IMG/VR virus record: IMGVR_UViG_3300035698_022074
Coordinates: 1 to 64,000 of that record
Direction: 5' to 3' (one strand)
DNA: 64,000 nucleotides
Source of the DNA: a virus
Positions 13,209-13,887 of the stretch are shown here, piece after piece (the stretch's first letter is position 1; every line of letters begins with the position of its first letter). The notes beneath the pieces were generated by a model that worked only from the letters and a program-made list of their open reading frames with translations, had not been told where the DNA came from and made no database searches. The translations under genes and the position numbers were made by a program.

Positions 13209-13887
13209 ATGTCAACAGTAATAATAGAGATAAGAGCAGGCGAAGGCGGCGATGACGCCAAAGATCTAGTGAACAAGCAGTTTGAAATATACAAGAAGGT
13301 AGCACTTCGGAGGTCATTTTAGCTGCCAGATAGTTTCTAACGGTTCTGGTTACCTATCCCTCAAAATGACTGGTAAAAACGTTCTAGATACCTTCCAGAA
13401 CGAATCTGGGGGCCATCGGTGGCAAAGGATTCCTCCAAATGATAAGAAGGGGCGAGTTCATACGTCAACAATCACTGTTGCTGTACTACGTGAAAAAGTA
13501 CACACGAAAATTGAAATACACGACGATGAGCTTGTATGGAAGATGACACGAGGCTCAGGTCCCGGTGGTCAACATAAGAATAAGACAGACACATGTGTCG
13601 TGTTGACCCATGTTCCTACACGAACAACAGTTAGATGTGACAGCAAATCTCAAGCGCAGAATAAAAAAGACGCATTTGCTGAACTTGAGAGACGTCTAAA
13701 TGATCAAAGGAGTGATAAGATACACTTTCAGCGTAATTCAAAGCGCCGCGAACAAGTAGGAACTGGCATGCGTGCTGACAAAGTCCGTACAATTAGATGT
13801 CAAGACGGTACAGTTAAATGTCACAATTCGGGACGTTCAATGCCACTCAAGAAGTATCTTCGTGGCATACTTCCTACAAAAAAGTAA
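13209..13887 (+). CDS. prfH: PrfH/RF-like peptide-chain release factor (domains 2-4, GGQ motif), two ORFs joined by a prfB-type +1 frameshift at 13317-13323
   Basis: ORF1 MSTVIIEIRAGEGGDDAKDL…RRSF* carries the domain-2 EIRAGxGGDEA motif. Frame +1 continues …SGGHRWQRIP…GRVHTSTITVAVL…GSGPGGQHKNKTDT… with the GGQ motif. The shift site is GGAGG-TCA-TTT-TAG-C, shaped like prfB's AGGGGG-TAT-CTT-TGA-C. Domain 1 is absent, as in PrfH. Confidence 0.7.
13309..13323 (+). promoter_or_regulatory. Programmed +1 ribosomal frameshift site (internal SD GGAGG, 3-nt spacer, slippery UUU U, in-frame UAG, then C)
   Basis: Sequence ggaggtcattttagc. The 0-frame stop is TAG at 13320. The +1 frame is open from 13303 through the GGQ domain. 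Confidence 0.6.

Follow-up and report, generated by a model that had tools for sequence, protein, structure and literature searches.

A short RF1-type release factor gene of a large tailed phage with a prfB-like +1 frameshift site at an in-frame UAG

The interrupted gene and its product

The stretch of DNA analysed here, called the window below, consists of positions 1 to 64,000 of IMG/VR virus record IMGVR_UViG_3300035698_022074. It comes from a large tailed phage and includes genes for a baseplate wedge, a helicase and PhoH; no match to known phages was seen in DNA similarity, and there is therefore no cultured relative. The region 13209-13887, on the plus strand, encodes a class-I peptide chain release factor (RF) in two overlapping pieces, a short open reading frame (ORF1) and its continuation in the +1 frame (ORF2), as set out in Table 1. 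It is very probably a single gene whose product, a factor derived from RF1, is made by +1 slippage of the kind known from prfB, with the shift site acting as a sensor of UAG decoding. The public annotation has it as a truncated "peptide chain release factor 1".

Read from the ATG at 13209, ORF1 has the translation MSTVIIEIRAGEGGDDAKDLVNKQFEIYKKVALRRSF and includes EIRAGEGGDD, the counterpart of the tip of helix alpha-5; in RF1 and RF2 this tip reads the stop codon's first base. The sequence at the junction is CGG AGG TCA TTT TAG C -- a Shine-Dalgarno (SD)-like element, a spacer, a slippery codon and an in-frame stop, with a C behind it that follows the stop in just 3 of 49 ordinary genes of the window. 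Readthrough of this UAG in frame 0 would add 5 further codons before a TAA; the +1 frame has no stop from 13303 until the TAA at 13885-13887 and encodes GGHRWQRIPPNDKKGRVHTSTITVAVL and the GGQ motif, and the predicted junction peptide of the joined protein is SFSCQIVSNGSGYLSLK. A single copy of the motif GGAGGNNNYTTTAG is present in the window (0.02 expected from shuffles), at the very point where one release-factor homologue passes from its first half to its second and changes frame. The features on which the original prediction was built, namely a 37-residue ORF1 with EIRAGEGGD, a GGAGG-TCA-TTT-TAG-C junction, the +1 continuation and GGQ, are thus all present.

Table 1. Features of the release factor gene, its shift site and the adjoining tRNA-PTH2 region (window positions)
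Feature	Position	Strand	Remarks
ORF1 (frame 0)	13209-13319	+	37 sense codons, N-terminus of the factor; EIRAGEGGDD at 13227-13256; closes at TAG 13320-13322
Internal SD-like GGAGG	13309-13313	+	Within Arg-Arg codons CGG AGG; 3 nt 5' of the slippery codon
Spacer TCA (E-site codon)	13314-13316	+	3 nt
Slippery UUU_U	13317-13320	+	TTT at 13317-13319
In-frame UAG, then C	13320-13323	+	UAG at 13320-13322, C at 13323; weak termination context
ORF2 (+1 frame)	13321-13887	+	Residues 38-225 and TAA: remainder of domain 2, domains 3 and 4
PPN tripeptide	13432-13440	+	Within decoding loop HRWQRIPPNDKKGRVHTS of ORF2
GGQ	13564-13572	+	Residues 119-121; invariant in 64/64 homologues
tRNA-like gene, UUU anticodon	14858-14930	+	Degenerate T-loop; Rfam 44.8 bits; uncalled by ARAGORN
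tRNA-CUA, amber suppressor	14939-15015	+	Encoded CCA; ARAGORN; Rfam tRNA 56.7 bits; loop UUCUAAC
tRNA-like gene, 10-nt anticodon loop	15020-15096	+	Loop GUAUUUAUAU; Rfam 38.7 bits; missed by ARAGORN
PTH2-family peptidyl-tRNA hydrolase	15120-15464	+	PF01981 47.5 bits, cutoff 23

The joined protein has 225 residues and is continuous across the junction, between residues 37 and 38. Pfam PCRF (PF03462) matches residues 3-90, a span that includes the junction, at 78 bits (cutoff 24), and Pfam RF-1 (PF00472) matches residues 99-205 at 80 bits (cutoff 35); with both domains above their gathering scores and with GGQ, the protein belongs to the class-I release factors of bacterial type. Among the NCBIfam models RF1 scores highest at 185 bits (profile positions 105-327 of 347), followed by RF2 at 121 and PrfH at 72. 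The RF1 equivalog cutoffs are not reached (185 bits against 400 for NF001859 and 176 against 423 for TIGR00019), though RF1 is still the top family, and PrfH also stays below its cutoff (72 bits against 166.65 for TIGR03072). The same order is seen against the sequences of solved structures, with 126 bits for RF1, about 78 for RF2 and 41 (40.6) for PrfH, and the alignment to Thermotoga maritima RF1 runs without interruption.

An AlphaFold model built on an alignment of 64 sequences reached a mean predicted local distance difference test score (pLDDT) of 91 and a predicted template-modelling score (pTM) of 0.78; a single-sequence run gave pLDDT 39 and was not used. Around the junction pLDDT is 95-98, and the model places the junction in the turn between a helix (residues 15-34) and a strand (residues 38-45). 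The TM-score is 0.91-0.92 to ribosome-bound RF1 (root-mean-square deviation 1.8 Å), 0.86-0.87 to RF2 and 0.65 to PrfH. The label "PrfH-like" given in the original prediction is therefore to be dropped: RF1 leads PrfH by 185 bits to 72 and by a TM-score of 0.92 to 0.65, the decoding elements of RF1 are kept, and no RtcB gene lies nearby. Of the searches that it had proposed, those with PF00472 and PF03462 gave matches and that with the PrfH model fell below its cutoff.

Its statement that domain 1 is missing was borne out, the match beginning at position 105 of the 347-position RF1 profile, so that about 105 N-terminal residues of RF1 are absent from the joined protein. In all short members of the family ORF1 starts 1-7 residues ahead of the EIRAxxGG motif. 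Domain 1 is the part of the factor that touches the L11 stalk and RF3. The tripeptide P-P-N in place of the PxT of RF1, likewise noted before, is also present; among the frameshifted relatives P-P-T is found in 48 of 64 and P-P-N in 13 of 64. On the profile matches and the predicted fold, then, the protein is an RF1-derived class-I factor made up of RF1 domains 2-4 without domain 1. Residue 84 (13459-13461) is the His of the RVHTS motif, to our knowledge universal in RF1 and RF2; 31 of the 64 frameshifted members have Gln there.

Directly upstream, at 12969-13202 on the plus strand, lies a 77-codon ORF with a Cys-rich C-terminus, whose TAG stands two codons ahead of the RF start and in the same frame. 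It was considered as a cryptic domain 1 joined by readthrough of that TAG and was rejected: it has no domain hit, is unconserved and differs in a near-identical strain. Its in-frame placement appears to be coincidental.

The shift site and in-frame stops among relatives

An alignment of seven joined proteins was used to scan IMG/VR and the JGI metagenomes, which added 160 loci (L-numbers below denote loci of relatives). Among 168 sequences, 65 require a +1 shift between EIRAxxGG and GGQ, 97 stay in one frame and none requires a -1 shift; the shift falls at the identical codon in all 65. Seven nearest relatives that came from the protein database shift at this codon as well, giving a total of 69 distinct genes, mostly on large phage contigs, and the homologues that carry the shift are 40-60% identical. 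The alignment of homologues that the original prediction had called for thus shows one and the same codon in every frameshifted gene, and its central claim, that one gene here needs a prfB-style +1 shift at UAG, is supported by the recurrence of the cassette. The reservation attached to it, that homologues in one continuous frame would point to a sequencing indel, applies in part: some relatives are indeed uninterrupted, but 69 distinct homologues share the site, and an indel is excluded.

Cassette statistics were taken from 64 non-identical frameshifted genes, with 41 single-frame phage genes and 56 bacterial RF1 genes as controls. The slippery codon is CTT, as CTT_T, in 63 of the 64; the TTT of the window gene is the only exception. 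A five-base SD match lies within 12 nt upstream in 44/64 frameshifted genes, against 0/41 single-frame phage genes and 0/56 bacterial RF1 genes. Its commonest form, GGAGG with a 3-nt spacer, is found in 32 genes, and almost every SD-bearing homologue has this spacer length; the element is formed by conserved Arg-Arg-Gly codons (CGG AGG GGT). In 50/64 a C follows the stop. Single-frame relatives have TTT, TTC, TGG, CTA and others at the slippery position, never CTT; like the bacterial RF1 genes they are without any of the shift signals, and no recoding signal was found in the bacterial RF1 sample. Residues E7, R9, G13 and G14 are invariant in the alignment of the 64 homologues.

A census of proteins agrees with these figures. 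The best 119 protein-database matches comprise 38 uninterrupted proteins (about 226 residues) and 81 N-terminally truncated calls, and 59 of the 81 carry the signature of the +1 frame, F followed by D/E, S or N/K. The exact ORF2 product is present on four contigs. One of the four, from the independently assembled strain L170, is 99.5% identical to the window over 6.5 kb (27 substitutions and several indels) and has an identical shift site. The TAG-gated members include L089, on a contig of 1,170,625 bp (Ga0316204_10000005), where the flanks consist chiefly of ORFs without domain hits; at 1.17 Mb this exceeds every phage genome known to us.

The stop at the shift site is TGA in 45, TAG in 17 and TAA in 3 of 65 genes (about 70%, 25% and 5%), and in the protein census TGA in 43, TAG in 14 and TAA in 2 of 59. 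On the tree it switches repeatedly among the three, also among the nearest relatives of the window gene. The decoding elements E7, R9, GG, D17, Q72, P75, P76, T/N77, H/Q84, T85 and S86 are near-invariant. Co-variation of the decoding loop with the type of stop was looked for and rejected, the sole associated column being residue 38, which is encoded by the last two bases of the stop itself. Between the stop and GC content or the stop usage of the phage there was only a weak, non-significant trend (rough chi-square about 3.9, 2 degrees of freedom), TGA making up 50% of flanking stops at TGA sites and 37% at TAG sites.

Stops within the gene are also found in short phage members that lie in a single frame, as TGA or TAG at four conserved positions. 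In L008 (TAG) and in L009 and L053 (TGA) the stop is exactly at the shift-site position; in 12 loci (L052, L066, L073, L079-L082, L085, L099, L128, L135 and L157) TGA replaces a conserved Trp, Phe or Leu codon one position earlier; and two further conserved positions occur in a low-GC group, at one of which L013 has TGA and L014 TAG. In-frame stops are also present in L005-L007, L013, L014, L016, L018, L034 and L055. As 5-kb flanks proved too noisy for calling the genetic code (GC-rich loci, tRNA arrays), 50-kb contexts and a test of TGG usage and of continuation past stops were used. One such phage has the standard code in its 50-kb context (coverage 0.925 without any gain when TGA counts as sense, and 237 TGG codons), and the flanks of the other in-frame-stop loci show normal TGG use, with TGA a real stop. 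This suggests that the internal stops are gene-specific readthrough gates; uninterrupted members without such stops also occur.

Suppressor tRNA, PTH2 and the surrounding genes

The genetic code of the window is standard: ORF tiling covers 0.837 of its length, against 0.856 with TAG as sense, and TAG closes about 10 real genes. It contains 39 tRNA genes and a transfer-messenger RNA (tmRNA) with tag peptide ANNNSHFQTALAA, in the regions 444-11939, 24523-25980 and 30901-31268. Two of the tRNAs, for Lys (7102-7192) and Asn (9111-9200), are unusually long at about 90 nt, and additional weak tRNA-like matches lie at 10150-10222 and 24603-24692. About 1 kb downstream of the RF gene stands a tandem trio of tRNA-like genes with an amber suppressor in the middle (Table 1). 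The best match of the suppressor among the other tRNAs of the phage is 71% identical, and the acceptor stem of the third member of the trio resembles that of an opal suppressor in L171. The tRNA-CUA would compete for the UAG of the shift site and is likely to be the decoder of a second UAG, in the gene that directly follows the trio.

That gene, for a PTH2-family peptidyl-tRNA hydrolase, opens with ATG TCT TAG, its third codon (15126-15128) being amber. The ATG at 15120 is the sole well-placed start, with AAGGA 7 nt upstream, and the next canonical start in frame lies at 15381. An ATG-NCN-TAG opening is also found in the PTH2 genes of L179 (about 2987-3330) and of L171/L172 (7137-7493), which are 50-54% identical in protein and have a tRNA-CUA nearby. 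From these sequences it looks like a conserved module of an amber-gated gene and its suppressor in genomes of otherwise standard code. UAG is then a gate twice within 2 kb and in opposite senses: the RF gene needs it undecoded, PTH2 needs it suppressed. In three suppressor-bearing phages (three cases only) the Thr of PxT is replaced by N or S. PTH2 is the only gene of the window with a convincing internal TAG; candidates at 47916 and 50394 were discarded, each having an ATG of its own.

The array of 27 tRNAs in L171/L172, the nearest relatives of the window, includes one opal (UCA) and two amber (CUA) suppressors, at 6714-6789, 6949-7023 and 8154-8226. A TGA-gated RF gene lies 1-3 kb upstream of these, and all three stops serve as normal gene ends in the neighbourhood. 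In strain L170, 84 nt are deleted at 4626-4636 (window 15001-15075), between T-loops that the suppressor and the next tRNA have in common. What is left is a chimaera not called as a tRNA, with the RF shift site and the ATG-TCT-TAG opening of PTH2 both kept; either a real variant or a collapsed assembly could explain it. As a family-wide neighbour of the RF gene the suppressor was rejected, none being found within 2.5 kb in 105 other loci; it belongs to the sub-clade of the window.

The RF gene is placed within tRNA arrays or next to them in other phages too, in some cases together with a tmRNA, and no conserved protein neighbour such as RtcB was found among 106 loci, nor any RtcB among the neighbours in the window. 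These neighbours (11993-12628, 13901-14737 and 15573-19371) include a PP2C-like phosphatase, a phosphomannomutase (PMM) of eukaryotic type and cytidylyltransferases, together with an HD-domain protein, a mannose-6-phosphate isomerase/cupin and a NUDIX hydrolase, and the order RF-PMM-PTH2-HD-NUDIX is common to the window and L177/L178.

Proposed mechanism, alternatives and known systems

The synthesis of the factor can be pictured as follows. With UAG in the A site, peptidyl-tRNA-Phe on the UUU at 13317-13319 would re-pair one base forward on the UUU at 13318-13320, and reading would go on in the +1 frame, the functional protein being produced solely after this slip. The internal GGAGG at its 3-nt distance upstream would promote the slip, and so would the C after UAG, a context poor for termination; the near-universal CTT with an SD at 3-nt spacing is the signature of P-site slippage. 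Slippage would compete with decoding of the UAG in the A site, so that the output of the factor should drop as the capacity to decode UAG rises. That capacity would come from host RF1, from the amber-suppressor tRNA of the phage and, provided that it reads UAG, from the factor that the gene encodes; decoding of the shift-site UAG by the suppressor would lead to termination six codons later. The gene would in this way serve as sensor and negative-feedback device for termination at UAG. Because UAG is the stop that a factor of RF1 type should read, self-feedback is plausible for this gene.

Several points weigh against this account. What the comparisons show is the structure of the gene, its family, its fold and the conservation of the cassette; slippage, how efficient it is, which stops the factor recognises and the feedback are inferred. 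GGAGG is SD-like in its letters, and the start of ORF1 has only a weak ribosome-binding site. With PPN rather than PxT, reading of UAG by the factor is not assured. About one third of the close relatives are uninterrupted, so the gate is dispensable. Furthermore, as the stop is mostly TGA and the loop is a fixed RF1-type one, autoregulation could not, to judge from the alignments, be the general rule in the family unless the factor also reads UGA; either the cassette would report the termination capacity of the host, or the factor would read more stops than its motifs indicate. With the family as a whole, the original prediction of an autoregulated, probably UAG-responsive factor is therefore only partly consistent.

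This last point leads to an alternative that deserves appreciable weight, though we do not favour it: the shift would be genuine yet not self-regulating, and would instead report host termination (RF2 at TGA, RF1 at TAG) or hold the factor at a low constitutive level, the stop having been chosen for its leakiness. The repeated changes of stop on the tree, even among nearest relatives, speak for it, as do the near-invariant decoding residues, with no column but residue 38 tracking the stop, and the prevalence of TGA, unreadable for the expected RF1 type and yet the commonest stop (45/65; 43/59). However, the stop of this particular gene is UAG, so that some self-feedback is the default expectation, and so strongly conserved a cassette of the sensor type favours regulation over simple attenuation. 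It is improbable that the product is a rescue factor of PrfH or ArfB kind, acting on stalled or damaged ribosomes without reading stops. Domain 1 is absent as it is in PrfH, Asn stands for the Thr of PxT, and the gene adjoins tRNAs in a genome region that also has tmRNA and PTH2, all of them linked to rescue; but the scores (PrfH 72 bits with a cutoff of 167, RF1 185) and TM-scores (0.65 and 0.92) favour RF1, the family conserves its decoding elements E7, R9, GG, Q72, P75, P76, H84, T85 and S86, and neither RtcB nor another conserved partner gene was found.

Very unlikely is a split gene, in which ORF2 would be translated alone from Met53, at the ATG of 13366, as a 173-residue protein, with ORF1 a separate peptide or a remnant. 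Gene callers do annotate it so. There is, however, no conserved ORF2 start: Met53 is unique to the window gene, its column being V, A or I in 58/64 homologues, and in 31/64 the +1 frame lacks any ATG ahead of GGQ; the 173-residue product would also be without the invariant EIRAxxGG and without helix 15-34, part of what is confidently predicted to be one domain. Decoding of UAGC as a quadruplet by a special tRNA, in place of P-site slippage, is suggested by the odd tRNA-like genes nearby, one with its 10-nt anticodon loop, and by four-base anticodons that ARAGORN reports near the RF genes of relatives (CCUA in L013, 990-1066; GAUG in L072, 1139-1211). None of these loops is complementary to UAGC, CTT with an SD at 3 nt is near-universal and most loci have no such tRNA nearby, so that this too is an extremely unlikely explanation. 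A sequencing or assembly indel, or a decaying pseudogene, has a practically negligible chance of being right; one surplus T in the run of four would look alike, but 69 homologues have the shift at the same codon together with SD, slippery codon, stop and C, none of the 168 needs a -1 shift, the strain assembled independently has the identical site, and both halves are strongly conserved as protein. The shared site, the lack of -1 cases, the identical strain and the missing ORF2 start are the reasons for regarding the shift as genuine, and on these comparisons sequencing error, pseudogene and split gene can be taken as excluded.

Slippage at a UAG sensor, if this is what the gene uses, may be one case of something wider. 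We suggest tentatively, and with rather more doubt than belief, that stop-gated synthesis organises the whole phage family of short RF1-type factors, by +1 shift or by in-frame stops, with broadened specificity or sensing of the host, and with a UAG-centred switch of RF, suppressor and PTH2 in the sub-clade of the window. Were this so, factors of broadened specificity, possibly for all three stops, would regulate themselves at any stop across the family, or else the phages would sense and re-set host termination capacity through these factors; in the window sub-clade the RF would be made when UAG is undecoded and PTH2 when it is suppressed, so that factor and suppressor are antagonistic. The amber-gated PTH2 with its suppressor suggests that phages of standard code use single stops as regulatory switches, which bears on how reassignment of stop codons begins in phages. 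A variable stop combined with a fixed decoding loop is a natural experiment in which self-sensing could be told from host-sensing, and which would also show whether a PPT or PPN factor without domain 1 can read more than two stops. For annotation, it follows that hundreds of phage "RF1" genes in the databases are truncated to ORF2.

The frameshift of RF2 is the textbook example of autoregulatory recoding and has stood alone for decades among release factors of bacterial type; its site in Escherichia coli prfB reads AGG GGG UAU CUU UGA C. The phage site shares with it the internal SD, the 3-nt spacer, CUU_U or UUU_U, the stop followed by C, a short ORF1 and a function encoded in the +1 frame; as reported for prfB, homologues without the shift do not conserve CUU. 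It differs in belonging to a phage-borne paralogue of RF1 type without domain 1, and in its variable stop (TGA, TAG or TAA, here UAG), where the UGA of prfB is the encoded factor's own codon. The place is different as well, residue 37/38 corresponding to about residue 144 of E. coli RF1 or 161 of RF2, in domain 2, and the prfB shift lying at codon 26, in domain 1. The sites being non-homologous, the phage cassette arose independently of prfB; the same cassette rebuilt at another site in the RF1-type gene of many large phages is convergent evolution, and such convergence is strong independent evidence for which of its elements matter. For prfB, a minority of species have UUU_U as the slippery site, and GG_AGG counts among the accepted forms of the SD; the cassette is known to work with UAG, which was the stop in its largest mutational study (PMC5009743). 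Frameshifting in prfB also changes when the SD, CUU or the fourth base is mutated (bioRxiv 10.64898/2026.01.08.698412). A 2016 review of recoding has RF2 as the sole bacterial-type case and calls an RF1/UAG counterpart "unknown" (PMC5009743). No prior description of a phage RF frameshift was found in the literature, papers on huge and recoded phages listing RF1 and RF2 genes without frameshift.

Bacterial RF1 (PrfA) is the best match in sequence and fold, with the GGQ, Q, H/T/S and GG-D/E elements and the P-P-T/N tripeptide in common; the phage protein departs from it in the missing 105 or so N-terminal residues, the score of 185 bits against a cutoff of 400, and PPN. With PrfH it shares the lack of domain 1 and a similar length, but it is closer to RF1 in sequence and fold, retains the stop-reading motifs and has no RtcB neighbour; PrfH pairs genomically with an RNA ligase of RtcB type (the rtcB2-prfH operon). 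The closest viral precedent is the class-I factor of eRF1 type of Mimivirus and Megavirus, which needs a frameshift and a readthrough and has been read as autoregulation in the bacterial style (Jeudy et al. 2012, PMC3521657). It too is a virus-encoded termination factor gated by recoding at internal stops, though of an unrelated family (eRF1/aRF1), from a virus that infects eukaryotes and with other signals. Finally, the code-change modules of recoded phages consist of a suppressor tRNA with RF1 or RF2, with or without an aminoacyl-tRNA synthetase, in an account that does not mention the frameshift (Borges et al., bioRxiv 10.1101/2021.08.26.457843). The window resembles them in having an RF gene near a suppressor tRNA in a large phage; it differs in its standard code, the stop reassignment of such modules being absent, and in the opposite pairing, a factor of RF1 type together with an amber suppressor.

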